Assembly: GCA_045636645.1 (NCBI GenBank)
Contig: JAZTXX010000018.1
Span: forward strand, 2,896 to 66,895
DNA from: Candidatus Nanosyncoccus sp.
GTDB taxonomy: Bacteria; Patescibacteriota; Saccharimonadia; Saccharimonadales; Saccharimonadaceae
Length of the DNA stretch: 64,000 nt
Direction: 5' to 3'
A program made the translations under genes and the position numbers. Every line of letters begins with the position of its first letter. The first letter of the stretch is position 1. Positions 1,213 to 13,485 of the stretch are shown one piece after another. The notes beneath the pieces are model-generated. The model did no database searches, was not told the DNA's origin, and was given only the letters and a program-made list of their open reading frames with translations.

Positions 1213-2661
1213 ATGGACTACACCCACTTCAAACAAATCATAGATAACTCCCGGGATATCCTCATGGGCAAATTGCCTAGCCCAATCGCTCAGGTAGATG
1301 CAATCTCCTATGCTTTAATCTATAAGTTTATGTCTGATACGGACGATGACTCTGCGGCCCTAGGCGGTAAGCGCACTTACTTCTCTGGCGAATATGAAAA
1401 ATATAGCTGGCATAATTTAATGAGTCCAACTATCACCGGCGCAGATCGCGTAATTCTTTACCGCAACGCTCTTGAGAATATGAGCCGAAATCCAAACATC
1501 CCTCCTCTATTCCGTGAGATTTTTAATGGCGCAACGCTCGGCTTTACAGATTCAAATACGCTTAATCTATTCCTTCGCGAAATCGATAAGATTAAACAGA
1601 GCTCTGGCGACTCCATTGGTGATGCTTACGAATACCTGCTTTCCACTATGGGCTCTCAGGGTAAACTTGGCCAATTCCGTACGCCTCGCCACATCATTAA
1701 TATGATGGTCGAGCTTATTAATCCAGATAAATCTGATAAGATCCTGGATCCGGCTTGTGGTACTGCAGGCTTCCTAATTTCTGCCTACAACTGGATTAAG
1801 AAGAAACACATCGAAAAAGAACGTTTAAATAGTGAAGATATCGAAAAGATTCATCGTAACTTCTACGGCTTCGATATCGAGCCTAATATGACTCGCATTG
1901 CGCGTGTAAACTTGTTCTTGCACGGTTTTAAATCTCCTCACATTATTGAGCACGATACCCTTAGCTCAGAAGACTACTGGGATGATAGGTACGACGTTAT
2001 TATTGCCAATCCTCCATTCATGACTCCAAAAGGCGGTATTACTCCACATAAAAAGTTTGGCATTACATCTAACCGTGCTGAGCTTCTCTTCGTTGACTAT
2101 ATTGCCTCACATCTAAAGCCAAATGGTCGTGCAGCGGTTATTGTTCCGGATGGCGTCTTGTTTGGAAGTAGCACAGCGCATAAATCACTCCGAAAAGAGA
2201 TAGTCGAGAACAAGAAGCTTCAAGCTGTCATTTCGATGCCTTCAGGTGTATTTAAGCCATATGCTGGCGTCTCTACAGCGATTTTAGTATTCACTAACTC
2301 AAATAGCGAAAGAACTGACAAAGTTTGGTTCTACGACATGAAAACGGACGGGTACAGCCTGGACGATAAACGTTCAAAGCTTAAAACAAGTGACATTCCT
2401 GATATTCTTGCAAGATTCAGAAATCTAGATGGCGAAAAAGACCGCACGCGTAGCGAACAATCATTCTTTGTAGATAAAGAAGAGATCGTTAAAAACGGCT
2501 ACGATCTAACGATTAATAAATACAAGGAAGTAGAATGCGAAAAAGTCGAATATCCGCCAACTTCTGAAATCATTGCTGAGATTAAGAAGCTAGATAAAGA
2601 AGCTTCCGAAAGTCTGGCCGAACTCGAAAAATTATTAAACGAAACAAATCCGGATTTGTAG
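1213..2661 (+). CDS. hsdM: Type I R-M N6-adenine DNA methyltransferase subunit
   Basis: Carries FRTPRHI, motif I DPACGTAGFL and motif IV IIANPPFMTPKGG. The gene is tightly packed between hsdR and hsdS. Confidence 0.9.
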   Translation: MDYTHFKQIIDNSRDILMGKLPSPIAQVDAISYALIYKFMSDTDDDSAALGGKRTYFSGEYEKYSWHNLMSPTITGADRVILYRNALENMSRNPNIPPLFREIFNGATLGFTDSNTLNLFLREIDKIKQSSGDSIGDAYEYLLSTMGSQGKLGQFRTPRHIINMMVELINPDKSDKILDPACGTAGFLISAYNWIKKKHIEKERLNSEDIEKIHRNFYGFDIEPNMTRIARVNLFLHGFKSPHIIEHDTLSSEDYWDDRYDVIIANPPFMTPKGGITPHKKFGITSNRAELLFVDYIASHLKPNGRAAVIVPDGVLFGSSTAHKSLRKEIVENKKLQAVISMPSGVFKPYAGVSTAILVFTNSNSERTDKVWFYDMKTDGYSLDDKRSKLKTSDIPDILARFRNLDGEKDRTRSEQSFFVDKEEIVKNGYDLTINKYKEVECEKVEYPPTSEIIAEIKKLDKEASESLAELEKLLNETNPDL

Positions 2662-2662
2662 A
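2644..2662 (+). repeat. 5' shufflon repeat at the hsdM/hsdS junction
   Basis: acaaatccggatttgtaga contains a 16-bp perfect palindrome, acaaatccggatttgt. The same 19 bp occurs in both arms of the 5868-5897 palindrome. Confidence 0.85.
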
Positions 2663-2663
2663 T

Positions 2664-3776
2664 ATGATTACAAAATTAGAAGATTTCTTAGAAGAAGTTA
2701 CCGAAAAGACAACACAGAGTGACCAATACCCAGTTCTTACATCATCAAAAAACGGATTGTTTCTGCAGGATGATTATTTCAATAAACAAGTAGCAAGTAA
2801 GGATAATAAAGGTTACAAAATTATTCGACGCGGCGAATTTACTTATCGTGCAATGAGCGACACAGGAGAATTCTATCCAAACATGCTCGAATGTGCGGAA
2901 ATTGGCATCGTAAGCCCTGCTTATCCGGTATTTAGAATTTCAAATGATATTGTTCTGCCAGATTATTTGAAGTACTATTTTAGATCGAGCAATTTCCAAA
3001 AATCCATCACTTCTTTTGTGCAGGGTAGCACGCGCGCAAGTATGAAGTTTGCCAAAATGAAAACTATTAGCATTGATTTGCCTAGTATAGAAGAGCAGCA
3101 AAAAATAGTTCTAAAGTTAGACCTTGTTAAAAATCAGACAAAGCAAAAAACTGAAGAACTAATGCAGTTAGATAACCTCATCAAAGCCCGATTTGTCGAG
3201 ATGTTTAAAGGAAAATATGACACGTTTAAGGTCGGCGAAAAGCTAAAAACAACTTCTGGTGGTACACCAAAAAGTTCAGTAGGCGAATACTATGATGGCG
3301 GTAACATTCCGTGGCTAACGAGTGGCGAAGTTAATTATGGAGATATTACTAAACCGTCGAATTACATAACAGAAAAAGGATTAAACAATTCGTCAGCGAA
3401 ATGGGTTCCTGAGAATTCGATCGTAATCGCTATGTACGGTGCTACCGCAGGTAAAGTGGGGATTGTGAGATACAGAACAACTACTAACCAGGCAGTTTGT
3501 TCTGTCTTGCCAAATGATGATTTTGATCAGGAGTTTTTACGTTACGCTTTTCAGGATATCAGTGAGGAACTAACTTCTAAAGCGATTGGTGGCGGACAGC
3601 CGAATATCTCTCAGACAATCATAAAGAACAGCTGTATTGTTGATGTGCCGATTGAAGAGCAAAAACGTTTTGCTTCTTTTGCCAAGCAGGTCGACAAATC
3701 AAAATTTGCCGTACAAAAGTCGCTCGAAAAGACTCAACAATTATTCGATAGCTTGATGCAGGAGTATTTTGGCTAA
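2664..3776 (+). CDS. hsdS: Type I R-M specificity subunit (expressed copy)
   Basis: ATG lies 2 nt after the hsdM stop. Two variable halves are separated by the conserved LDNLIKARFVEMF, and the protein ends in the conserved FAKQVDKSKFAVQKSLEKTQQLFDSLMQEYF. Confidence 0.9.
   Translation: MITKLEDFLEEVTEKTTQSDQYPVLTSSKNGLFLQDDYFNKQVASKDNKGYKIIRRGEFTYRAMSDTGEFYPNMLECAEIGIVSPAYPVFRISNDIVLPDYLKYYFRSSNFQKSITSFVQGSTRASMKFAKMKTISIDLPSIEEQQKIVLKLDLVKNQTKQKTEELMQLDNLIKARFVEMFKGKYDTFKVGEKLKTTSGGTPKSSVGEYYDGGNIPWLTSGEVNYGDITKPSNYITEKGLNNSSAKWVPENSIVIAMYGATAGKVGIVRYRTTTNQAVCSVLPNDDFDQEFLRYAFQDISEELTSKAIGGGQPNISQTIIKNSCIVDVPIEEQKRFASFAKQVDKSKFAVQKSLEKTQQLFDSLMQEYFG
3171..3206 (+). repeat. Central shufflon repeat, copy A (hsdS)
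   Basis: gataacctcatcaaagcccgatttgtcgagatgttt. 33 bp are identical to the reverse complement of 5338-5370. Confidence 0.9.
3687..3709 (+). repeat. 3' shufflon repeat, copy A
   Basis: caggtcgacaaatcaaaatttgc is identical to 6937-6959. 20 bp are identical to the reverse complement of 4799-4818. Confidence 0.85.
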
Positions 3777-3782
3777 AAAGTT

Positions 3783-3823
3783 ATTCCTTTTGTTAGTGGA
3801 GGTTCTAATCTAACAAAAGGAGT
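3783..3823 (+). promoter_or_regulatory. Stem-loop whose 3' arm contains the recombinase Shine-Dalgarno
   Basis: ccttttgttag (3786-3796) pairs perfectly with ctaacaaaagg (3810-3820) around a 13-nt loop, and the stem extends to about 14 bp. The SD aaaggag (3816-3822) lies inside the arm, and the ATG is at 3829. Confidence 0.55.
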
Positions 3824-3828
3824 TATTA

Positions 3829-4797
3829 ATGGAAGATACCATTAAATACATTTTGGTGGATATGGATGAATATCTCACCGCAAATCAATCACAAAAACTA
3901 CAACGCGTGCTCGTTTCGCGCCTAACGAAAGAAACGAGATCAATAAATGGCATTTCAAACGACAATTATCTGTCAATGTTTTTGAATGCCAAGAAGATAG
4001 AAGGATGCTCCGAGCGGACTCTATCCTACTATAAAACCACCGTAGAAAAGCTACTAGATGAAATAGATGATCCAATACGCAAAGTGACCACCGATGATAT
4101 ACGTGATTACCTTGCAAACTATCAAGGTCTAAATGATTGTAGTAAAACAACGATCGACAATATTCGTCGCAACATCTCGAGCTTCTTTACCTGGCTCGAG
4201 GAAGAAGACTACATTATCAAAAGCCCAATGCGCAGAATCCATAAAATCAAAACTACAAAAACCGTAAAAGAAATTATCTCAGACGAAGAAATAGAAAAAA
4301 TGCGCGATAGATGTAGTAGTTTGCGCGATTTGGCGATTATTGACCTTCTCTACTCGACCGGAATTAGAATTGGCGAGCTCGTAAGGCTCAATATTGATGA
4401 CATAGACTTCGAGGAACGTGAATGTATCGTTTTCGGCAAAGGCGACAAAGAACGTCGCGTATATTTTGACGCTAAAACTAAAATACACCTGATGGGCTAC
4501 ATAAATAGCCGTTCTGACGCAAATCCTGCCCTTTTCGTGACGCTTGACGCGCCTTACGATAGATTGCAGATATCTGGCGTAGAAATCCGCCTGAGGCACT
4601 TAGGACGCGAATTAGGCATAAATAAAGTTCATCCTCATAAATTCCGCCGTACTATGGCGACTCGCGCAATCGACAAAGGAATGCCAATCGAGCAAGTTCA
4701 GAAATTACTAGGTCATTCACAAATCGATACTACCATGCATTATGCGATTGTGAATCAAACGAATGTAAAAGTTGCACACCGCAAGTTCATTGCTTAG
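3829..4797 (+). CDS. Tyrosine site-specific recombinase (XerC/D-like) embedded in the hsdS locus
   Basis: N-terminal SAM-like core-binding region. The catalytic signature reads YSTGIRIGEL (Arg), HPHKFRRTMAT (H-x-x-R) and LGHSQIDTTMHYA (His/Tyr). Confidence 0.85.
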   Translation: MEDTIKYILVDMDEYLTANQSQKLQRVLVSRLTKETRSINGISNDNYLSMFLNAKKIEGCSERTLSYYKTTVEKLLDEIDDPIRKVTTDDIRDYLANYQGLNDCSKTTIDNIRRNISSFFTWLEEEDYIIKSPMRRIHKIKTTKTVKEIISDEEIEKMRDRCSSLRDLAIIDLLYSTGIRIGELVRLNIDDIDFEERECIVFGKGDKERRVYFDAKTKIHLMGYINSRSDANPALFVTLDAPYDRLQISGVEIRLRHLGRELGINKVHPHKFRRTMATRAIDKGMPIEQVQKLLGHSQIDTTMHYAIVNQTNVKVAHRKFIA

Positions 4798-5865
4798 CGC
4801 AAATTTTGATTTGTCGACTTGTTTATAGAATGCCGAGAATTGTTCTTGTAGTGTGATTGGCGGCAAAGCAACTTTGTATCCATCAAGGAATGACACTGGC
4901 GTTCTTCTTTGCCCAGCACTACCAGTCATGTTTGCTTCGGCATCCTTTCTGAATGATTTAAATGATGTTAATACGTAAATCCAATATGGATTACTTATAC
5001 CATCAATCGGACGTAATACGTGGAACTCGGTTGAACCAAAACCTATCTCATTCTTTAAACCTTTTGCAACTGCGCCCTTGCCATTCTCCATGCAAGGTGT
5101 AATTTTCGCAAATAATACATCGTTTTCCGCGAAATACGTAAAGCCTTTTTTGACTTCTTCGTAAGGCCTAATATCTGTCGGATCGATATCGCCTTTCTCG
5201 GAGACTGACGGCATAGGAATAAAAGAAACCTCTATGTCTGGCTTCAACCTTTTGTCCTTTGCTTTTTTAGGATTCAACTCGCAACATTCACCCAATTCTT
5301 TTACTCCATAGCAAAACGGATCGGCTCCTGGCGTTCCAAACATCTCGACAAATCGGGCTTTGATGAGGTTGTCTAGCTTTGCTAACTCATCTTCTTTTTG
5401 ATGAATTAGTCGTTTAATAGTATTCAAACTCTGAACGATTGATTTTTGATCTTTTTCGTTATGAAGATCCAATTCGTCAGTAAGCCATCTTTTTAAATCA
5501 AGTGTTTTGCCTTGCCGGCTCCCCCTATTTGCATAGATAGAAAACATTCTTTCATTGTTAGCCGCCAATAGGTAATCCAAATAGTCATAGTTCGAAATCT
5601 TAATCTTGTACGTGTGATATGCGGGAGAAACTGAGTATGTTTCGTCATCTCGTAGTATTCCGATGTCGATCTGATTAGAGCCCATACCAACCGTTAAAGT
5701 TCCTTTATGGATTATTTTATTCTTAGAATAGTCCTTTGCTAGTTCTTTTGAGTAAATACTCTCGCGTGTTCTAATTCCATATTTGCCTACAGCTACCGGT
5801 TTGTATTTATTGTCGGTGTTTCTTTCCGAATATTCTTCGATCAAATCGCCCAATTTAACTTTCAT
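4717..5865 (-). CDS. Silent hsdS cassette 1 (inverted relative to hsdS)
   Basis: Full two-TRD HsdS layout with LDNLIKARFVEMFG and FYKQVDKSKFA. HsdS-like sequence stops at the 3' repeat (4799-4821). The ORF tail 4717-4798 is antisense read-through into the recombinase gene. No promoter-like box lies upstream. Confidence 0.75.
   Translation of the reverse strand: MKVKLGDLIEEYSERNTDNKYKPVAVGKYGIRTRESIYSKELAKDYSKNKIIHKGTLTVGMGSNQIDIGILRDDETYSVSPAYHTYKIKISNYDYLDYLLAANNERMFSIYANRGSRQGKTLDLKRWLTDELDLHNEKDQKSIVQSLNTIKRLIHQKEDELAKLDNLIKARFVEMFGTPGADPFCYGVKELGECCELNPKKAKDKRLKPDIEVSFIPMPSVSEKGDIDPTDIRPYEEVKKGFTYFAENDVLFAKITPCMENGKGAVAKGLKNEIGFGSTEFHVLRPIDGISNPYWIYVLTSFKSFRKDAEANMTGSAGQRRTPVSFLDGYKVALPPITLQEQFSAFYKQVDKSKFALSNELAVCNFYIRLIHNRIMHGSIDL
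4799..4821 (-). repeat. 3' shufflon repeat, copy B (inverted)
   Basis: The plus strand reads gcaaattttgatttgtcgacttg, starting 2 nt after the recombinase stop codon (4795-4797). Confidence 0.85.
5335..5373 (-). repeat. Central shufflon repeat, copy B (cassette 1, inverted)
   Basis: The reverse complement reads gacaacctcatcaaagcccgatttgtcgagatgtttgga. It shares a 33-bp perfect match with copy A and a 34-bp perfect match with copy C. Confidence 0.9.
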
Positions 5866-5867
5866 AC

Positions 5868-5897
5868 TACCTCTACAAATCCGGATTTGTAGAGGTA
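5868..5897. repeat. 30-bp perfect palindrome between the two silent hsdS cassettes (two head-to-head 5' repeats)
   Basis: tacctctacaaatcc|ggatttgtagaggta. It lies 2 nt from the cassette-1 start (5865) and 4 nt from the cassette-2 ATG (5902). Confidence 0.9.
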
Positions 5898-5901
5898 TTT
5901 G

Positions 5902-7005
5902 ATGAAGATTAATGAAGTAATAAAATCATTGCCAGCATCAAATGCTGCAGTAAAGAACACTGCTTCTTCTGAACCAAAAAACGGTTGGTTTCCTGCATAT
6001 AGCGCATCCGGACAAGATGTTTGGCTTCCTGAATATCGCTACGACAAGAAAGGGATTGTAGTTAGCGCGGTTGGAGCAAGGTGCGGAAAAGCATTTAAAG
6101 CCGACGGGAAATGGAATATATGCGCCAATACTCATCCATTAATCGTTGAAGAATCGAAAGCGCTTCGTGATTATTGTTGGTACATGATCAATGATGAAAA
6201 TTGGTGGATTAAGGGCGGTACAGCCCAACCGTTTGTAAAGGTTAAAGATTCTTTTAATCGCGAGCATCATTTTCCTACCTTGAAAGAACAAAAAGTAATA
6301 GTCGATCAACTAGACACAGCTCGTCTACTGATAGAGCAGAAAGAATTGCAATTGAAACAACTTGATAGCCTCATCAAAGCCCGATTTGTCGAGATGTTTG
6401 GAGCACCTGGTACCAACCCTAAAGGCTGGAACGAGATTAAGCTAGGCGAGGTCTGCGACCTCCAAAATGGTTATGCGTTCAAATCTAGCGACTATATTGA
6501 TAAATCTAGTGTCTTGAATTGTAGGATGAGTAACATTAGGCCAGACGGAGGTTTTAATGCGGAATACCATCCAAAATATCTTCCTGAAGAATATTGGAAT
6601 AAGTGCTCAGGGTATCGATTATTTGACGGTGACGTAATCATCGCAATGACAGATATGGCTAGCGACCCAAAAATTCTAGGAGTTCCGACAATAGTGTCTA
6701 CGAATGGGAAGAAGTTTCTTTTAAATCAACGTGTTGGAAAACTCTCATTTCTTCATGACGATCGAATAAATAGGGTTTACTTGATGCATTCACTTGGACA
6801 AAAATATGTCAGAAAAGAACTCGCAAAAAGTGCCGCAGGTAGTACACAAATAAATGTTGGGAAACCAGCAATTTTAAACATTGACATTTATGAGCCACCG
6901 AGATTTCTTCAAGACCAATTTGCAACCTTCGTCGCCCAGGTCGACAAATCAAAATTTGCTGTCTACTCCGCATTGAGCTACCTGAGAAAAATTATGAAAA
7001 TATGA
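5902..7005 (+). CDS. Silent hsdS cassette 2 (direct relative to hsdS, head-to-head with cassette 1)
   Basis: Two-TRD HsdS layout with LDSLIKARFVEMFG and VAQVDKSKFAV. It has a non-canonical short tail after the 3' repeat. ATG at 5902 (the track starts at TTG 5899). Confidence 0.75.
   Translation: MKINEVIKSLPASNAAVKNTASSEPKNGWFPAYSASGQDVWLPEYRYDKKGIVVSAVGARCGKAFKADGKWNICANTHPLIVEESKALRDYCWYMINDENWWIKGGTAQPFVKVKDSFNREHHFPTLKEQKVIVDQLDTARLLIEQKELQLKQLDSLIKARFVEMFGAPGTNPKGWNEIKLGEVCDLQNGYAFKSSDYIDKSSVLNCRMSNIRPDGGFNAEYHPKYLPEEYWNKCSGYRLFDGDVIIAMTDMASDPKILGVPTIVSTNGKKFLLNQRVGKLSFLHDDRINRVYLMHSLGQKYVRKELAKSAAGSTQINVGKPAILNIDIYEPPRFLQDQFATFVAQVDKSKFAVYSALSYLRKIMKI
6364..6402 (+). repeat. Central shufflon repeat, copy C (cassette 2)
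   Basis: gatagcctcatcaaagcccgatttgtcgagatgtttgga. Confidence 0.9.
6937..6959 (+). repeat. 3' shufflon repeat, copy C
   Basis: caggtcgacaaatcaaaatttgc. Confidence 0.85.
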
Positions 7006-7011
7006 TATAAT
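7003..7011 (+). promoter_or_regulatory. Extended -10 box (TGATATAAT) upstream of mrr
   Basis: Overlaps the cassette-2 stop codon. A ~57-nt leader with SD ggag lies before ATG 7069. Confidence 0.4.
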
Positions 7012-7068
7012 ATATCTAGTAATTGCGGCTAAATATATTTTTTGCCAGCCGTAGAAATGGAGTGATTT

Positions 7069-7989
7069 ATGGACATATCCAAGATGTCTGCGCAACAACA
7101 AGAAAAGTATTTAGTCGAAAAAATCTTCAAAATCCTTAAGGAGTACGGCCAGCCAATGACGCGTGCCGATCTAAAAGAAGTATTGTCTGATCGTGACGAC
7201 AGTATTGCGGACTACATAAAGTTTGAACGAACTAGCGAGAAAACACAAAATACATATCATCCATTTCTTTTTAAATTTAACTTCGCAATTAAAAATCTTG
7301 CTATCGCTGGCCTAATAACAAGTGAAGGCAAAATTGCTTTAACGGAAAAAGGCATTAATTTAAATGCAGCAGATTTCAATGTGGACAAAGATGTATACGA
7401 CATAAGTAAAACCTATTGGAAAGAAAAGCACAAAGAATATCTTGCAGAAAAAGAGCAGGAAGAAGCTGGAGACGATAGTAAATTAGAGAAGTCAGGCCCA
7501 CAAGAAGTCTATAATGAAAACCTTAAAGCCAAATTACTAGACGCTATTGCTAAGATGTCTCCTGGAAAATTCGAGGCATTCTCGCGCGCACTTCTAAAGA
7601 AAATGGGTGTAGATTTTACCGAAAAAGGCACGAATATTAGCAATGATGGCGGAATCGACGGTTTTGGCTATCATAGAGACTCTAACGATTTTAGAACCAC
7701 TCGCGTAGTCATCCAATGTAAGAGATATAATGCCGGCGATGTTTCTTCTCCGGAAATTGACCGTTTCTTGGGTGCTATGAACAAAAACCAGGCCGATTAC
7801 GGTATTTTTATTACTAATAGTAGATTTACGGTGTCGGCAAGAAAGGCGGCCGTTGAAGGCTCACCCGTAACGCTTATTGACGGTGACGAACTAGTCCGCC
7901 TAATCATCAAATACGAACTATTCCTTGTTCCAGTACAAACCTATGAGCTTACCGATTTTTACAAAAGTGAAGACGAACAGACTCAATAG
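7069..7989 (+). CDS. mrr: Mrr-family (Type IV) restriction endonuclease
   Basis: N-terminal winged-helix-like region. The C-terminal Mrr catalytic core reads SNDGGIDGFGY ... VVIQCKRY (D..(E/Q)xK) followed by ADYGIFITNSRFT. Confidence 0.75.
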   Translation: MDISKMSAQQQEKYLVEKIFKILKEYGQPMTRADLKEVLSDRDDSIADYIKFERTSEKTQNTYHPFLFKFNFAIKNLAIAGLITSEGKIALTEKGINLNAADFNVDKDVYDISKTYWKEKHKEYLAEKEQEEAGDDSKLEKSGPQEVYNENLKAKLLDAIAKMSPGKFEAFSRALLKKMGVDFTEKGTNISNDGGIDGFGYHRDSNDFRTTRVVIQCKRYNAGDVSSPEIDRFLGAMNKNQADYGIFITNSRFTVSARKAAVEGSPVTLIDGDELVRLIIKYELFLVPVQTYELTDFYKSEDEQTQ

Positions 7990-8116
7990 CCTCCTTCATT
8001 CCACATTTTGAGCAAATCTTAGTCTTATTATCCCTACGCGATAGCGCAGGATAGCCGATATAATGAGCATCGCATTTCGGGCATTTGCGACGCTTTTTGA
8101 CGTTCTTTTTATCCAT
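7949..8116 (-). CDS. Unlisted 55-aa zinc-ribbon protein (below the ORF-track cutoff)
   Basis: Hand translation gives MDKKNVKKRRKCPKCDAHYIGYPALSRRDNKTKICSKCGMKEAIESVRLHFCKNR*. It has CxxC-x19-CxxC and an SD (aaggag) 7 nt upstream of the ATG. Its 3' end overlaps the mrr 3' end by 41 nt (convergent). Confidence 0.55.
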   Translation of the reverse strand: MDKKNVKKRRKCPKCDAHYIGYPALSRRDNKTKICSKCGMKEAIESVRLHFCKNR

Positions 8117-8304: not shown

Positions 8305-9072
8305 TTGGAAGTTGTAGTGCCTGAAGATGTAGCAAAATTTATAGATCGACTTATCGCCCTTCACTTTGAGGGCGGATGTTTGATTAATGCTATCGACGAG
8401 GCAAAAAATGATCCTCAAGACGAAGAAACTTTCAATATAATCTGTCATCTCCTTTCCTGTGCTGATGAAGATATCGATAGGAGCAAAATCAAGAGTACTT
8501 ACGATCTTTTAGAATATAAAACGAATGAATGGATCGTATCGTGCATCGACATGCTTGCCAATATAAAACCTCAACGCTTTATCTTCAATTTCACTAATAA
8601 TAGCATTAGATATAACGAAGATGACGATAAATACTTACTGCTAAGAGAACAAACCGTATTAGATCTTAAATTACTCGAAGAGATAATTCCAGAAATCGAG
8701 CGCGAATACGAAGACGGTCACAAGCAGCTCTTCTATGATGACGATAAAGATCTCAAGGTAAGCTACGATCCAAAAACTCGCACAATCCACGTCGGTAACA
8801 AAGTAGTACGTTTCCGCGAGGACGCACCGTTCACTCCTGCTCTTTGCGAAATTATGTTTAAGGACCCAACAAAACTTTACGAATTACGCGATTTCCAGAC
8901 CGTCTGGGATGATTTGTATGATTACATAGGTAATGAACGCCCTTCGGACTGGCACCGCGTCTACGAGGTCTTAAAACGCCTTAACGAGCGCATTCGTAAT
9001 ATCGCCGGAATAGATGATCTATTTGAACTCAATACAAAATCAGTCAGAATCAATCCTAAATACTTAAAATAG
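8305..9072 (+). CDS. Hypothetical protein, possible C-terminal winged-helix DNA-binding domain
   Basis: The 255-aa ORF has a non-ATG start (TTG 8305 or GTG 8317). The C-terminus (..ELRDFQTVWDDLY..HRVYEVLKRLNERIRN..SVRINPKY) loosely resembles OmpR/PhoB-type wHTH. No firm motif was found. Confidence 0.4.
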   Translation: MEVVVPEDVAKFIDRLIALHFEGGCLINAIDEAKNDPQDEETFNIICHLLSCADEDIDRSKIKSTYDLLEYKTNEWIVSCIDMLANIKPQRFIFNFTNNSIRYNEDDDKYLLLREQTVLDLKLLEEIIPEIEREYEDGHKQLFYDDDKDLKVSYDPKTRTIHVGNKVVRFREDAPFTPALCEIMFKDPTKLYELRDFQTVWDDLYDYIGNERPSDWHRVYEVLKRLNERIRNIAGIDDLFELNTKSVRINPKYLK

Positions 9073-9227
9073 CTCAATATTATCGCAATAATAACGCTGA
9101 ACTCTCTTTTTGTATCCTTGCAATATGGAATGAAGAGGTAATATAACGTATCAGAAAGACAAGAAACTGGAGCAACAAGCGCTCGTAAAGTTTCTAGAAA
9201 TATTAATCGATATAGACAAGCGAGAGC

Positions 9228-9569
9228 ATGTCGTTAATAAGGATGACGACGATGAATAGCTTTATATCGGAAATTGAAATAATGCCAGTAAAGCCGCATG
9301 GCGGACTGGTAGCCTTCGCAAGCTTTGTGCTGTACGGAACGATCTACTGTAGTTCTGTCGGCATTATGACGCGACTAGATGGCTCATATAGACTCACCTT
9401 TCCAACCAAAAAGGTTGGACTGAATAGCTTCGGAATATTCTACCCGATAGACAGATATGTTGGGCAAGAAATAGAAGAGGCAGTGATTAGTAAATATGAA
9501 GATGTAATGAGAGCTAGCGATGATCGATACTGTGATTCTCCGAGTGAACTACCCCAATTTCAGGATTAG
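9228..9569 (+). CDS. SpoVG-like protein
   Basis: IEIMPVKPHGGLVAFASFVLYGTIYCSSVGIMTRLDGSYRLTFPTKK..GIFYPIDRYVGQEIEEAVISKYEDV follows the SpoVG pattern (kAfasv...v.dikv....G.f..mPs.k....d...Pi). The real start may be ATG 9252. Confidence 0.55.
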   Translation: MSLIRMTTMNSFISEIEIMPVKPHGGLVAFASFVLYGTIYCSSVGIMTRLDGSYRLTFPTKKVGLNSFGIFYPIDRYVGQEIEEAVISKYEDVMRASDDRYCDSPSELPQFQD

Positions 9570-10731
9570 CCCGAGCGTTTATCGTAAGTTCTCTCCTTCT
9601 GCTCATGGCATCTTTGGACCGCCATACTATTCTTTTGGATCCGGAAAAGTTATTAAATGCGTACTGCAGCTAAAGGCAAAAGATAAGAAGCTAGGCATAT
9701 ATCAGCCACGCGTAACACTTATGAAAGCAGTACGAGCCGGCGGTGTTTCTGTATTCTTACATATCGAGTTCTCAGCGCCAAAGATTCTTTATAACAACAA
9801 CTTCGACGAGCTTAACTCTGGCGACTTTAAGGGTGTCTGTCTGGAACTTTATCGCAAGCTATATAAGCTCGGAATTGAGATTAAAAGAAACCAGATAGAA
9901 AGGGCCGAAGTCAAGACGGTCCACTTTGGCAAGAATATAGTCTTTGATGATTACCGAACCGCGGCAAGCGTAATTGGCGATATAGCGAAAGCGAACGTGT
10001 CAACCAGAAAGCAAGCCGATATGCGCGTTTACCGAAACGATGGCGAGGCTTTGCACTTTTACAGCGCAAGTCAGGCCATAGCGATTTATGATAAACGAAG
10101 AGAATTGGCTAAGTCTCGCGTCAGCGAGCGCGGACTACTCGAGAAAGATAACTACTGCCAGCTCACGCTATTTGATAACGTTCGTTCGAAGAAGCCTTTT
10201 GAGGTGGTGCGTGTTGAAGCGAGATATAACACTAAACGTGCGTTCAATACAGCGCTGAAACACGCTCTCGAGAAGGCTAAAGCGAGCGACAGTGTCGCAA
10301 GACTAGCTACGAAGCAAAAGCTTGTATTTATAGATATCTTTAATGAAGAACTAGCCAAGACGCTGTTGGAATATGAGTTCGCGCAGATCGAAGCGAAGAA
10401 CCTAGATCTTAATGAAACGATTACGAATACAGCTACCAGCTTTCTTCATGAAATTAATACGTTAAATCCAAAAGCGACCTTGGCGCAACGGCTAGAGACT
10501 TTGGCGATATGGAGCCTAATGCGCGAAACCGGAAGCCGAGACGTGCGGAAGATGACTGGCGCCAATTCGGCGCAGTGGTCTAGACTTACAAAGAAAATAT
10601 CAAAGATCTACTTTAGAACGAGAAAGAGTAGCTCTACTAGCTACATAGAAGATAAACTGGCAGAGTTTAAACCAGTACGATTACTTGAATACTTTACAGA
10701 ATTAAACAAGGTGCGCGCTGGGCCAAACTAG
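9520..10731 (+). CDS. Putative phage/plasmid replication-initiation protein (gene II / CRI-like)
   Basis: The N-terminal MIDTVILRV.. and the ..LHIEFSAPKILYNNNFDELNSGDF.. block resemble filamentous-phage/plasmid Rep families as I remember them. Not verifiable here. Overlaps the SpoVG-like ORF by 50 nt. Confidence 0.35.
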   Translation: MIDTVILRVNYPNFRISPSVYRKFSPSAHGIFGPPYYSFGSGKVIKCVLQLKAKDKKLGIYQPRVTLMKAVRAGGVSVFLHIEFSAPKILYNNNFDELNSGDFKGVCLELYRKLYKLGIEIKRNQIERAEVKTVHFGKNIVFDDYRTAASVIGDIAKANVSTRKQADMRVYRNDGEALHFYSASQAIAIYDKRRELAKSRVSERGLLEKDNYCQLTLFDNVRSKKPFEVVRVEARYNTKRAFNTALKHALEKAKASDSVARLATKQKLVFIDIFNEELAKTLLEYEFAQIEAKNLDLNETITNTATSFLHEINTLNPKATLAQRLETLAIWSLMRETGSRDVRKMTGANSAQWSRLTKKISKIYFRTRKSSSTSYIEDKLAEFKPVRLLEYFTELNKVRAGPN

Positions 10732-10830: not shown

Positions 10831-12398
10831 ATGTTTGATAACATGGGAAACTCTACCCCTGTAAATACCGGCAAAACTAATGAGCCGCAACTAACCAGAA
10901 AAGCTGTTCTATTCGCTCGCGTATCAACAGCGCGACAAGAAAAAGAAGGCTTATCTCTCGATGAAATTCAGTTACCGCGAATGCGCGATTATGCAATCGA
11001 GCAAAATTTAAAGATCGTACGCGAATACGCCATTGGCGAAACTGGCGGTAGCTATAAAGAGCGCAAACGCTTCAACGAGATGATCCAGTTCTTAAAGGAT
11101 AATCCGGATGTAACGGACATTATCGCCTTCCGCGTAGATCGTATTACGAGGAATTTCCGCGACGCGGTAACGATTGAAGATTTGCGCATTAAATATGGCA
11201 AGCGCATCCACTGCGTTGACGAAAGGCTGATTCTCTCGGAGAATAGCCGCGCGACCGACCTCACATCTTGGAATGTGAAGGTTTTTGTGGGTCAGGAATA
11301 CCTGAACCGCATTAAGGAAGACGGCCTTAATACGAAGATTAACAAACTGTCGCGCGGCGAGCTACCATGGAGCGCGCCTTATGGCTATGAATTCAAAACT
11401 ATCAGCGTCAGGCCGAAGGTTAAAAACGTCGTTCCTGTAGAACCGGCCGCGTCGATTGTAAAAGAAGTATTCTTACTCTTCTCAACCGGAACTTATTCAT
11501 GTAGAACCTTAGCAAGACTAATGAACAAGAAATACGGCACTAGATTTTCGCAAGGGATCATCCACAAATTCCTAAGATGCGAGTTTTATGTCGGGTTTAT
11601 TATCGATAAAAAAGGCGGAAAGAAATATCCGCATAATTACGAGAAGATAATAGATCGAGAGTTGTTTGATATGGCTAATCAGATACTCGACAAGAGAAAC
11701 CTTAAGGGCGACGACCAAGTACCGAAATATGGTGGCATAGAATCGGCTTATCGTGGACTAATTCGCTGCGAAGAGTGTGGATGCACAATAACGCCAGAAT
11801 TTAAGAAGCGTAAGCTACGACATGGTGGTTATAATTACCACAAATACTACCACTGCACGAACCGACGAGGAGTCCATAAGAGCATGAAGAGCTACACCGA
11901 AGAATATCTTGATGATAAGGTAAAAGAATTCCTACGAGGATTAAGATTAACCGAAACGAAGCTAGACGAGATTAGAAAGGCGTTAGCCGAAGCGCACGCC
12001 GGAAAGATAGATTTCTATCGCGAGCAACGCCGAAGCTTGTCTCAAAAGCGTAAGAAACTAGAAGCGAGACAGCAAGAAGCTTACGATATGTTGATGGACA
12101 AGAGTATTACTCTGGAACTTTATAACCAAAATAACGAGCGATATCGCAACGAACTGGCCGAGATCCAAACGCAGGAAGCCGCGCTAGATCGAGCTGACGA
12201 CAACTTCTATACGAACGCCGGTTACATCTTAAAAGTCTTTAAATATGCCGATAAATTATTCGACGTTGCCACGACGGCCGAAAAAAGAGACCTCATTGGT
12301 CTCATCACGTGCTCGAACCGAACTTTAGGACCTAGCGGACTGATATTACAGGGGTCAGGACCGTTCGCTCGGAACTTTTCTGGTCTAAATTCTGAAAA
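10831..12398 (+). CDS. Large serine recombinase (3' end undefined: no in-frame stop before 13485)
   Basis: Resolvase catalytic region AVLFARVSTARQEKEG, a recombinase domain, a zinc ribbon (CEECGCTITPEF...YYHCTNRRG) and a long coiled coil. The reading frame continues antisense through the tRNA. Confidence 0.8.
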
Positions 12399-12473
12399 TG
12401 GCTGGAGCGGAGGGATTCGAACCCCCGAATGGCGGGACCAGAACCCGCTGCCTTACCACTTGGCGACGCTCCA
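12399..12473 (-). tRNA. tRNA-Gln (anticodon CUG), CCA encoded
   Basis: Reverse complement: TGGAGCG TC GCC AAGTGGTAA GGC A GCGGG TTCTGGT CCCGC CATTC GGGGG TTCGAAT CCCTC CGCTCCA G CCA. All four arms fold. It has the U1:A72 pair and G73 typical of bacterial tRNA-Gln. Confidence 0.9.
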
Positions 12474-12483
12474 AGCTTTAGCT

Positions 12484-12492
12484 ATTGTACCA
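12484..12492 (-). promoter_or_regulatory. Extended -10 box (TGGTACAAT) for tRNA-Gln
   Basis: The plus strand reads attgtacca. Only 10 nt separate the box from the mature tRNA 5' nucleotide (12473). Confidence 0.45.
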
Positions 12493-12507
12493 TATTTTCA
12501 TAAAAAA

Positions 12508-12516
12508 TGCTATAAT
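12508..12516 (+). promoter_or_regulatory. Extended -10 box (TGCTATAAT), 9 nt before ATG 12526
   Basis: Leaderless-type spacing, divergent from the tRNA promoter. Confidence 0.5.
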
Positions 12517-12525
12517 AAGCATACT

Positions 12526-13485
12526 ATGGCTAAGAAAAAAATTTTTACAAATAAACAACTAGCTGAACTTTCTGCCGAAGAAATCATCGACAAGCTGCAG
12601 CACGAGAACTATTCTCTCCTTAATTCGCTTGGTGCCGAGAAGCTCCGTAAAGAGATGGTACCAGTAGGTAAGGCCTGCAATACTGCTATTAATTATTTCT
12701 TTGGGACTACTGGACCGAAGTCTGATCCCGTCAAGCATAGCAAGGCTGCAAGGAAGAAACTGGTTAGAATTCTATCGAAGATTACGCCTGGTTCGTACAA
12801 AGGGATACCGCACGACCAGAAGAATGGCCTCGTCGTAGGATTCAATCATCCTTCACTCGGCGAAATTGCTAGAATCCTCATGATGAAAATCGATATCATG
12901 GGTGATAAGCCAATGTATTTTCCGGTGAATCTGCCTTGGTATGAAGCATTGGCGCCGAATTTCGATCGTATCAAGAAGCTTGGAATTATTATTACTCCAA
13001 CGATTACTCCTTCGACCTGGCAGAAGATGGCCCTTAAAGAGGGAACTAAATTATTCGAGGATGCATCAAGAATCAAGCGTGATTTTCGCGAGATTTATAC
13101 TTCTTTATCTCATGATGCTTTGAAAAATGGCGGCGTAGTATTCGTTGCACCGTCAGCTACTAGGCAAGCTACAGTATTTAAGTCTAAAAATGTCTATGAT
13201 AAGAAAGAAGATATTATTCCGACCATGTCCGTGCTGGCACTTAGTATTTATAAGGATCCTGAGATGCAGTGTGACTTTCTCCCGATAGCCGTGCTCCCAC
13301 CTAAAGGATACAAGCGTGGTTTAAACTTCCGAAAAAAATACAAATTGATTCCGTGTGAGGTCATGACTGCCGATGAGATTCGCAAGAAATACTTTAAGAC
13401 CAAAAATCCTAAACGTCTTGATGGGTTCGATTATGATTTTCACATGCGTATCGCCGAAAAACTCCCGAAAGATTTCTGGTATTAA
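12526..13485 (+). CDS. Hypothetical protein, weak acyltransferase-like features
   Basis: MAKKKIFTNKQLAELS.. is the distal part of the 884-aa track ORF and has its own promoter box. FNHPSLGE and VVFVAPSATRQ vaguely recall PlsC-type HX4D/E and PEGTR blocks. Confidence 0.5.
   Translation: MAKKKIFTNKQLAELSAEEIIDKLQHENYSLLNSLGAEKLRKEMVPVGKACNTAINYFFGTTGPKSDPVKHSKAARKKLVRILSKITPGSYKGIPHDQKNGLVVGFNHPSLGEIARILMMKIDIMGDKPMYFPVNLPWYEALAPNFDRIKKLGIIITPTITPSTWQKMALKEGTKLFEDASRIKRDFREIYTSLSHDALKNGGVVFVAPSATRQATVFKSKNVYDKKEDIIPTMSVLALSIYKDPEMQCDFLPIAVLPPKGYKRGLNFRKKYKLIPCEVMTADEIRKKYFKTKNPKRLDGFDYDFHMRIAEKLPKDFWY

Follow-up and report, generated by a model that had tools for sequence, protein, structure and literature searches.

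A three-cassette hsdS locus in Candidatus Saccharibacteria with the features of a recombinase-driven shufflon

We describe a locus for Type I restriction-modification at the left end of a 64,000-nucleotide stretch of DNA from Candidatus Nanosyncoccus sp. (contig JAZTXX010000018.1 of assembly GCA_045636645.1, positions 2,896 to 66,895; hereafter 'the window'), in which three specificity-subunit genes (hsdS-A, hsdS-B, hsdS-C) are arranged around the gene for a tyrosine recombinase. To judge from its sequence the locus is a genuine hsdS shufflon, well formed and very probably functional, and we regard modular inversion of hsdS by the encoded recombinase as the highly likely explanation of its structure. 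We document below the anatomy of the locus, the conservation of reading frame across its repeats, the arrangements that it can reach, selection acting on the DNA of its recombination sites, and polymorphism of state among its relatives; recombination in the source strain is, on these grounds, probable. The closest relatives of the recombinase place the locus within Candidatus Saccharibacteria, in agreement with the original prediction (a reading of the same DNA from its letters) that the organism has a reduced genome, and the organism is placed near Ca. Minimicrobia.

The left window edge cuts a probable hsdR, the frame of which is open from nucleotide 1 and ends at 1209 (plus strand). The 403 C-terminal codons that fall inside the window match the NCBIfam models of Type I endonuclease subunit R only weakly and are 86–91% identical to the hsdR genes that adjoin hsdM in relatives; at the equivalent position of two related loci, L081 and L082, lies a full-length hsdR of ~850 amino acids with ResIII/DEAD domains. 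It is followed on the plus strand by hsdM (1213–2661), which encodes the N6-adenine methyltransferase subunit (Pfam N6_Mtase, E = 5e-70; the NCBIfam match of 113 bits is below the equivalog cut-off of 243), and by hsdS-A (2664–3776, plus strand; Pfam Methylase_S, E = 2e-31), which occupies the expression site. The latter consists of a first target recognition domain (TRD1, 2664–3175), a second (TRD2, 3207–3689) and a native tail (3710–3776). After a gap of 52 bp, which contains no toxin-antitoxin pair, comes the recombinase gene (3829–4797, plus strand). Cassette hsdS-B lies on the minus strand (4717–5865), starting at 5865, reaching its 3' repeat at 4799 and continuing as an open reading frame (ORF) to 4717, with TRD1 at 5865–5369, TRD2 at 5337–4819 and its last 26 codons at 4796–4717. 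Cassette hsdS-C returns to the plus strand (5902–7005; TRD1 5902–6368, TRD2 6400–6939) and ends in a 14-amino-acid tail of its own. The order of orientations is thus A(+), B(−), C(+), and Pfam finds two Methylase_S stretches in each of the three genes.

These gene calls and Pfam matches agree with the earlier description of one hsdS gene abutting hsdM and two further cassettes surrounding a tyrosine recombinase. That description also called the two further cassettes full-length; B and C fall slightly short of this, since both are without the native 21-amino-acid C-terminal tail of hsdS-A. The six TRD halves had been thought unrelated to each other. Their identities range from 19 to 32%, yet TRD1 of A and TRD1 of B are homologous (30%, E = 3e-16), and the halves are highly divergent rather than strictly unrelated.

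The recombinase is a XerA-like protein of 322 amino acids with a Pfam Phage_integrase domain (E = 8e-35) and an N-terminal, SAM-like Phage_int_SAM_4 domain. It scores 259 bits against the XerA-type family NF040815 of NCBIfam, above the curated cut-off of 220, and it can be aligned to XerA of P. abyssi (4A8E, E = 9e-29) and to XerD of E. coli. The alignment shows that the catalytic residues are kept (R180, K204/K207, H270, R273, H296 and Y305), and the embedded recombinase of the original prediction is intact.

Maximal exact matches located three classes of short repeat, which we name H (head, 5'), M (midpoint, central) and T (tail, 3'). The M site comprises 31 nucleotides common to the three cassettes (3176–3206, plus strand, in A; 5338–5368, minus strand, in B; 6369–6399, plus strand, in C), with the A/B and B/C pairs matching over 33 and 34 nucleotides; in hsdS-A its translation is LIKARFVEMF, the last part of the central helix. 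The T site comprises 20 common nucleotides (3690–3709, plus strand; 4799–4818, minus strand; 6940–6959, plus strand), the A/C pair reaching 23, and in hsdS-A it encodes (Q)VDKSKFA within the C-terminal helix; the copy in B begins 1 nucleotide past the recombinase stop codon (TAG, 4795–4797). The H site, of 19 nucleotides, precedes hsdS-A as ACAAATCCGGATTTGTAGA (H1, 2644–2662), the inner 16 bp of which form a perfect palindrome and within which fall the final codons and TAG stop of hsdM. The same sequence can be read from either strand within a perfect palindrome of 30 bp, TACCTCTACAAATCCGGATTTGTAGAGGTA (H2, 5868–5897), which supplies two overlapping head sites for the divergent cassettes B and C and in which GAGG on either strand could act as a Shine-Dalgarno sequence. 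Each class has three or four matches in the window at up to three mismatches, against 0.00–0.02 expected in shuffles of the window, and the codon phase is the same in all three cassettes (phase 2 for M, phase 0 for T). The repeat classes proposed at the module borders, including the double 5' site, are accordingly real, in frame and beyond chance.

A 10-bp arm, GATTTGTMGA, is common to all nine copies of the repeats; it occurs nine times in the 64 kb, every time at one of these copies, where 0.47 occurrences would be expected. Written in the orientation of this arm, H is ACAAATCCG/GATTTGTAGA, M is TCAAAGCCC/GATTTGTCGA and T is GCAAATTTT/GATTTGTCGA, and all three follow the general form CAAAK-NNN-GATTTGTMGA, with a conserved right arm, a weak and inverted left arm (CAAAK) and a centre that differs by class (CCG, CCC or TTT). 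The same pattern of arm and centre is seen in 22–26 copies per class from relatives, and in any one gene the arm of the M site is on the strand opposite to that of the T site. We take this layout to be the usual core-site architecture of tyrosine recombinases. The shared arm and class-specific centre would then constitute a site code, in which the positions of binding and crossover are putative. An AlphaFold2 model of HsdS-A (pLDDT 88) has the canonical fold, with two TRDs and a coiled coil of two long helices, and is matched by Foldseek to 1YF2 (E = 1e-22), the S subunit of PacII (TM 0.76) and EcoR124I (TM 0.73). The M site corresponds to residues 172–181, the C-terminal end of helix 142–181, and the T site to residues 342–349, one third of the way into helix 330–369; given these helix positions, the repeats mark natural module borders of the protein.

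Starting from the actual sequence, we simulated recombination between all inverted pairs of same-class sites, treating the palindromic H sites as free of orientation, and followed all products. Inversion alone reaches 72 arrangements. An intact hsdS ORF lies behind hsdM in all of them, and all nine TRD1/TRD2 combinations, the 3 × 3 specificities that had been thought conceivable, arrive at the expression site in 0–4 steps. HsdM keeps its length of 482 amino acids in 72/72 states, because its TAG stop is part of the H arm, and the palindrome supplies it anew after each inversion. A simulation without the H sites reaches 24 states, in which there are 3 variants of TRD2 and no change of TRD1, so the 5' site is needed for exchange of TRD1. 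The T sites flank a module made up of the native tail, an intergenic hairpin and the recombinase gene; this module consequently flips on its own, a movement that the original prediction had overlooked, and the expressed HsdS takes an antisense tail in half of the states. The predicted swapping of TRD1, TRD2 and whole cassettes is reproduced in the simulation, with the qualification that the M and T sites of A and C are in direct orientation, so that the modules of C reach the expression site only via intermediate inversions (2–4 steps). The same direct orientation makes excision of a circle bearing the recombinase formally possible.

Public assemblies contain near-identical relatives whose states differ and whose breakpoints fall at the sites described above, which supports the interpretation of the locus as a shufflon. 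Two sibling assemblies, L106 and L113, encode recombinases 92–93% identical to that of the window, carry three cassettes and have in common a flank that holds an Mrr gene, which in L106 is downstream of the cassettes. All their shared blocks are 98.6–100% identical, but the TRD2 beside the fixed flank differs, the module of tail and recombinase is reversed, and the two M sites have traded flanks between their TRD1 and TRD2 sides. Breakpoints fall exactly in GTCGACAAATCAAAATTTAC (T, ~20 bp) and in the M core (~25 bp), and three inversions (M × M, T × T, M × M) convert one arrangement into the other. A second pair, L083 and L084, is 99.4–99.7% identical and differs by inversion of the whole hsdS-recombinase-hsdS segment, with junctions at the H site and a ~173-bp inverted copy of the hsdM end. 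Here a single protein, P0136 (375 amino acids, with a tail of the antisense type), is encoded by the silent inverted cassette in L082, L083 and L085, and lies directly behind hsdM in L084, where the recombinase points the other way.

Searching metagenomes for a 20-mer of the recombinase gene brought up 32 more loci, of which about 13 are in the standard state and two (L096 and L112) are inverted at H. Locus L005 is also H-inverted, and its hsdM (8784–10415, minus strand) has lost its stop at the junction and reads on through 61 extra codons, antisense to the recombinase, to give an ORF of 543 rather than 482 amino acids; the palindromic head site of the window would prevent read-through of this type. 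The TRD alleles of the window recur elsewhere, at 76–94% identity, in other combinations and in both expressed and silent positions. Thus L081, the hsdM of which is 98% identical, expresses a B1-like TRD1 with an A2-like TRD2 and carries C1-like and B2-like halves in its third cassette, and its homology with the window breaks at the M repeat. Among database HsdS proteins, A2-like TRD2 sequences (92–94%) are joined to at least four N-terminal partners (A1-like, B1-like, C1-like and an unrelated type ~31% identical to A1), with further TRD1 sequences matching none of those in the window; the B1+A2 protein (P0129, 365 amino acids) and the C1+A2 protein (P0148, 355 amino acids) have exactly the lengths obtained by simulation. 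No cross-class hybrid site (such as M × T), in which one class would supply the left arm and another the right flank, was found among ~400 sites, which fits an exchange restricted by class.

Many public contigs with this recombinase are only 1.1–3.3 kb long and end in or near M, T or H repeats (L085 among them); L002 starts and ends in inverted M sites, and L008 and L041 hold little beyond the recombinase. Short contigs that end in repeats are the usual assembly symptom of polymorphic invertible DNA.

A scan for the recombinase, with one genome taken per species, found at least 579 relatives. The closest (83–95% identity) are all from Candidatus Saccharibacteria, including that of Ca. Minimicrobia vallesae (94%), which has a complete genome of 0.71 Mb. 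The next tier (64–72%) comes mostly from Lachnospiraceae and other Firmicutes, with others from Akkermansia, Alloscardovia and further genera. The DNA of the M and T sites is nearly invariant across both tiers, and the H site is conserved at the hsdM ends of relatives; in Firmicutes it is present as direct, non-palindromic copies (CAAATTCGGATTTGTAGGG). The three-cassette layout with a palindromic head site is found again in L004, L081, L106/L113, L116 and others. The third (5') site and the head-to-head pair of silent cassettes, which had been considered less usual, are therefore not unusual: the three-cassette layout recurs in Saccharibacteria contigs, the pneumococcal cod/ivr locus likewise has three hsdS genes and three classes of inverted repeat (PMC4948785), and the 5' site is present in Firmicutes.

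The likeliest of the alternatives is that the locus works mainly by excising circles between direct repeats and reintegrating them, rather than by inversion. This is how TRDs are shuffled at the pneumococcal tvr locus, where midpoint (~18 bp) and tail (~70 bp) repeats share a core of ~11 bp, much as the repeats of the window share an arm (PMC6265443). Most relatives outside Saccharibacteria with 64–72% recombinase identity, at least 42 loci, have the direct layout hsdS(+)-recombinase(+)-hsdS(+); A and C are in direct orientation in the window itself; and a survey by Huang et al. assigns Saccharibacteria loci to the TvrR clade (PMC7672463). The direct-layout relatives, which make up most of the L007–L080 set, keep the same M and T sites in a layout that suits excision and reintegration over inversion. 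In Saccharibacteria loci, however, the downstream cassette is inverted: this holds for the cassette beside the recombinase in the window and in its close relatives. The differences between L083 and L084 and between L106 and L113, and the states of L096 and L112, are all explained by inversions without loss of DNA, and excision from the state seen in the window would remove the recombinase gene from the chromosome. Excision is compatible with inversion, and both reactions may occur, but we think it unlikely that excision is the main mode.

A second alternative holds that the locus is a static, duplicated set of hsdS genes, in which the repeats are simply the DNA of conserved motifs (LIKARFVEMF and QVDKSKFA) and the recombinase is a passenger, either dead or without connection to them. 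Conserved HsdS motifs are indeed encoded by the M and T repeats, and codon usage bears on whether that is all they do. We collected 97 M motifs from non-Saccharibacteria relatives by protein pattern only and compared their codons with those of the recombinase genes of the same loci. Arginine is encoded by CGA in 93/97 motifs (background share 15%), alanine by GCC in 76/83 (14%) and valine by GTC in 70/90 (11%), whereas conserved residues flanking the M site are encoded by differing codons in the three cassettes. Synonymous positions are thus fixed far beyond codon bias, from which it follows that the site DNA itself is under selection, and on this evidence we reject the view of the repeats as mere conserved protein motifs. 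The H site, moreover, lies outside hsdS, in the hsdM stop region and an intergenic palindrome; near-identical relatives are rearranged at these very sites; and the recombinase is intact and is syntenic with hsdS cassettes in more than 100 loci. A point on the other side is the locus of Ca. Minimicrobia vallesae IHU2 (L003; NZ_CP076459, 5381–10228), which looks degraded or error-ridden, and loci of this kind can apparently decay: its hsdM is interrupted near the 3' end, and both its hsdS cassettes are broken into ORFs of 127–149 amino acids. Past its silent cassette, the end of hsdM is repeated as an inverted copy of 165 bp. Taken together, these observations leave a static set a very small probability.

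General homologous recombination or gene conversion at the repeats, independent of the encoded recombinase, is just as improbable, since the repeats of the window, at 19–34 bp, are short for RecA-dependent exchange, all sites have in common an arm of recombinase type, sites and recombinase co-occur across phyla, and the breakpoints between L106 and L113 lie within sites of ~20 bp (T) and ~25 bp (M). What speaks for it is the longer repeats of other loci, in that inversions at the 85- and 298-bp repeats of S. pneumoniae persist without PsrA (PMC4948785) and two-cassette Saccharibacteria loci carry the ~173-bp inverted repeat of the hsdM end.

Under the inversion model that we favour, hsdR, hsdM and hsdS-A would form the expression unit, with B (inverted) and C (direct) stored downstream, and the XerA-like recombinase encoded between A and B would act on the H, M and T sites. 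The enzyme would bind the shared GATTTGTMGA arm, and the class-specific centre would limit strand exchange to sites of the same class, with the proposed consequence that every product is in frame and modular. An M × M inversion would swap TRD2 blocks; T × T would flip either the module of tail and recombinase or whole cassette blocks; and H × H would bring another cassette head, with its TRD1, behind hsdM. Successive inversions through the 72 arrangements and nine TRD1/TRD2 specificities would give a clonal population whose cells differ in their N6-methyladenine methylation and restriction targets, while a hairpin that sequesters the ribosome-binding site would hold recombinase output low.

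Several points weigh against this model. Exact look-ups of the window's hsdM, recombinase and hsdS-A in an assembly index returned no contigs, so no alternative state of this exact locus was found there. The ~173-bp repeat of the two-cassette loci could be flipped by homologous recombination, and the H site of the window has only 19 bp. That B and C are silent is an assumption; C, which is on the strand of the operon and has its own Shine-Dalgarno sequence and ATG, could be translated from read-through transcripts. A recombinase gene that has flipped loses transcription from the operon, and the non-native tail that expressed HsdS receives in half of the simulated states belongs among these objections too; an AlphaFold2 model of cassette B (pLDDT 53, with the antisense tail below 50) is uninformative. 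A scan for promoters and terminators gave no signal above chance (promoter-like sites were fewer than chance, and no terminator was seen at the relevant places), a result with no bearing on whether B and C are silent.

The principle of such a locus is well established from the pneumococcal ivr/cod and tvr loci; the original prediction had pointed to ivr, to Mycoplasma pulmonis hsd and to Bacteroides fragilis. The SpnD39III/Spn556II system (ivr, cod; recombinase PsrA/CreX) resembles the window in its gene order of hsdR, hsdM, hsdS and recombinase followed by two hsdS genes of mixed orientation (PMC4190663, PMC4948785), in its three classes of inverted repeat, in nested inversions that keep the frame, and in having the recombinase inside the invertible region. 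Direct-repeat excisions also occur at this locus, which has three hsdS genes, an embedded tyrosine recombinase and repeat classes of 15, 298 and 85 bp (PMC4948785). Those repeats are mutually unrelated, whereas the repeats of 19–34 bp in the window share their 10-bp arm. Its silent genes are truncated and provide 6 alleles, whereas the cassettes of the window have a Shine-Dalgarno sequence, ATG and two TRDs and provide 9 combinations; and the Saccharibacteria loci are put in a different clade by Huang et al. (PMC7672463).

With the tvr locus (SpnIV, TvrR) the window has in common midpoint and tail repeats that share a short core, and are hence targets of one recombinase, and a structured element upstream of the recombinase gene, which at tvr is an attenuator before tvrR that limits expression (PMC6265443) and to which the hairpin of the window would be analogous. 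It differs in that the tvr repeats are all direct and act through circles, whereas the window has an inverted cassette and natural variants that are inversions; in that a TvrAT toxin-antitoxin pair stands beside the tvr recombinase and none beside that of the window; and in that the TRD adjoining hsdM is fixed at tvr and would be moved by the H site here. The survey of Huang et al., which covers 827 loci, counts two Candidatus Saccharibacteria loci among them, assigns these to the TvrR clade ('clade 2'), and notes that orientations are mixed in clade-2 loci, which may undergo both inversion and excision (PMC7672463). The phylum spread of that clade (Firmicutes, Actinobacteria, Verrucomicrobia, with an archaeal-like XerA signature) matches that of the window's relatives (PMC7672463). 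The core that the repeats share, the hairpin upstream, the spread across phyla and the survey table together make it likely that the window recombinase belongs to the TvrR clade; the link to TvrR itself is made through these features and the table. Such loci in Saccharibacteria have, then, already been counted in a published survey but not described (PMC7672463), and our literature search found no paper analysing a Saccharibacteria locus of this kind.

The locus has these structural features of an 'epigenetic inverton' in the sense of Huang et al.: at least two hsdS genes in opposite orientation, inverted repeats that keep the frame and flank TRD segments, and a recombinase in the locus. A further feature, several arrangements and methylation motifs within one clonal population, has indirect support from the near-identical relatives assembled in different states. 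All-direct repeats, by comparison, are found in L006-type and Firmicutes relatives and not in the window, where the M and T arms are opposed and B is inverted. Since two tvr features, the all-direct repeats and the tvrAT pair, are absent, we class the locus with the phase-variable Type I systems that are invertons, with ivr-like topology and tvr-like sites. Two further systems bear comparison. The hsd locus of Mycoplasma pulmonis, as cited in PMC7672463, is likewise from a reduced-genome, host-associated organism, with 5' (vip) and central (hrs) sites that let both TRDs be exchanged by inversion; its recombinase HvsR, in the same account, is encoded elsewhere and also inverts surface-lipoprotein genes, and its hsdS genes flank hsdR and hsdM. 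The R64 shufflon (Rci, sfx) likewise uses one tyrosine recombinase and many short sites with one conserved and one poor arm, in a multiple-inversion cluster that swaps C-terminal protein modules (PMC11852207). Its target is the pilV tip adhesin, not hsdS, and it has a single site class, so the likeness is one of logic only.

The intergenic hairpin lies immediately upstream of the recombinase (3786–3820, plus strand) and has perfect 11-bp arms, CCTTTTGTTAG (3786–3796) and CTAACAAAAGG (3810–3820), of which the 3' arm covers the recombinase Shine-Dalgarno sequence AAAGGAG. Its minimum free energy is −18.2 kcal/mol (z = −4.07), a stability that none of 200 shuffles attained, and it is kept in 8 Saccharibacteria loci, where one of its pairs shows a compensatory change. 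In 36 relatives of other phyla its place is taken by another hairpin, ATGTTGGTA / TACCAACAT, which hides the start codon and leaves the Shine-Dalgarno sequence in the loop. In the alignment of these relatives (L007–L075), 93.6% of cells are paired, against 86.1% in shuffles (0/500 reach 93.6%) and at most 52% in slid controls; two-sided changes are seen in 36 cells against 13.6 expected, and 3 of the 11 pairs covary (UA/CG/AU). By analogy with tvr, the hairpin probably throttles translation of the recombinase and keeps its output low, and the occlusion of the ribosome-binding site that we infer here appears to be a new detail. Two Logan contigs (P0002 and P0003) contain predicted HsdS-recombinase fusions of 696 amino acids with Methylase_S, Phage_int_SAM_4 and Phage_integrase domains, which could be read-through gene calls or real fusions.

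Flipping at the T sites gives HsdS alternative C-terminal ends. The native tail of hsdS-A after the T site is VQKSLEKTQQLFDSLMQEYFG (21 amino acids); cassette B ends in 26 amino acids encoded by the antisense strand of the recombinase 3' end, and cassette C in 14 amino acids unrelated to the native tail. The codons of the B tail are the in-register reverse complement of recombinase codons (4717 − 3829 = 888 = 3 × 296). Counted from the end of KSKF, all three tails have hydrophobic residues at positions 2, 6, 9 and 13, and the two long ones also at 16 and 20: V, L, T, F, L and Y in the native tail, L, L, C, I, I and I in the antisense tail, and V, L, L and M (to position 13) in that of cassette C. 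Since these positions are kept, the substitute tails may still extend the coiled coil, which is the function that their sequences suggest. In relatives, an A2-like TRD2 is joined to the native tail in ~50 of 120 proteins listed and to the antisense-recombinase tail in ~34.

The third cassette of L081 runs straight from its T site into a tail reading AISQSLL...SSRDNAG (11983–12150), a remnant of which is present in the window at 7989–8051, just past an Mrr-family restriction endonuclease gene (7069–7989, plus strand; Pfam Mrr_cat, E = 7e-30). Because this remnant sits after Mrr, the cassette-C tail and Mrr of the window together (~1 kb, within 6960–8051) look like an insertion made exactly 3' of the T site. 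Mrr is a neighbour within the same defence cluster and lies outside the switch. Further downstream are a small ORF with a weak SpoVG-like match (9228–9569; 25.9 bits, below the Pfam cut-off), which overlaps the start of a 403-amino-acid ORF without a family match (9520–10731), and an ORF for an 884-amino-acid large serine recombinase with Resolvase, Recombinase and Zn-ribbon domains (10831–13485, plus strand). Inside the latter, on the opposite strand, lies a strong tRNA-Gln(CTG) (12399–12473, minus strand; ARAGORN; Rfam 58 bits), and core genes (nusG, ribosomal protein L1) begin near 16.4 kb. Given the integrase, the tRNA and the start of the core genes, the block of restriction-modification, Mrr and SpoVG-like genes may be a genomic island that ends at the integrase and tRNA.

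Combining these strands, one may picture a widespread family of XerA-like recombinases with a three-word site code (one arm, several class centres), used for excision and reintegration in most Firmicutes and for multiple inversion in Saccharibacteria. In the latter, a palindromic head without intrinsic polarity would serve two divergent cassettes, a dual-coding recombinase 3' end would provide an alternative HsdS C-terminal helix with heptad hydrophobics, and a hairpin over the ribosome-binding site or start codon would be conserved by covariation across phyla. As a whole this combined picture is tentative, and we hold it to be possible rather than probable. The parts of it that we infer and believe to be new are the code of the sites, the head that is a palindrome, the double coding at the recombinase 3' end, the hairpin at the ribosome-binding site and the use of one enzyme-site pair in both layouts; a literature search for the code, the head, the dual-coding end, the covariation of the hairpin and the dual-layout use did not find them described.

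Loci of this kind break short-read assemblies (several relatives end exactly at repeats) and make methylation-based binning and motif calling ambiguous. If the site code holds, sites of 20–30 bp and a recombinase of 322 amino acids would make a tidy multi-state DNA-inversion tool. Such loci are also a likely barrier to current attempts at genetic manipulation of Saccharibacteria. These bacteria live as ultrasmall epibionts and have genomes of ~0.7 Mb, and that a locus of ~7 kb with nine specificities is kept in such a genome suggests strong pressure from phages or other foreign DNA; alternatively, variable methylation may serve gene regulation in an organism with few regulators.

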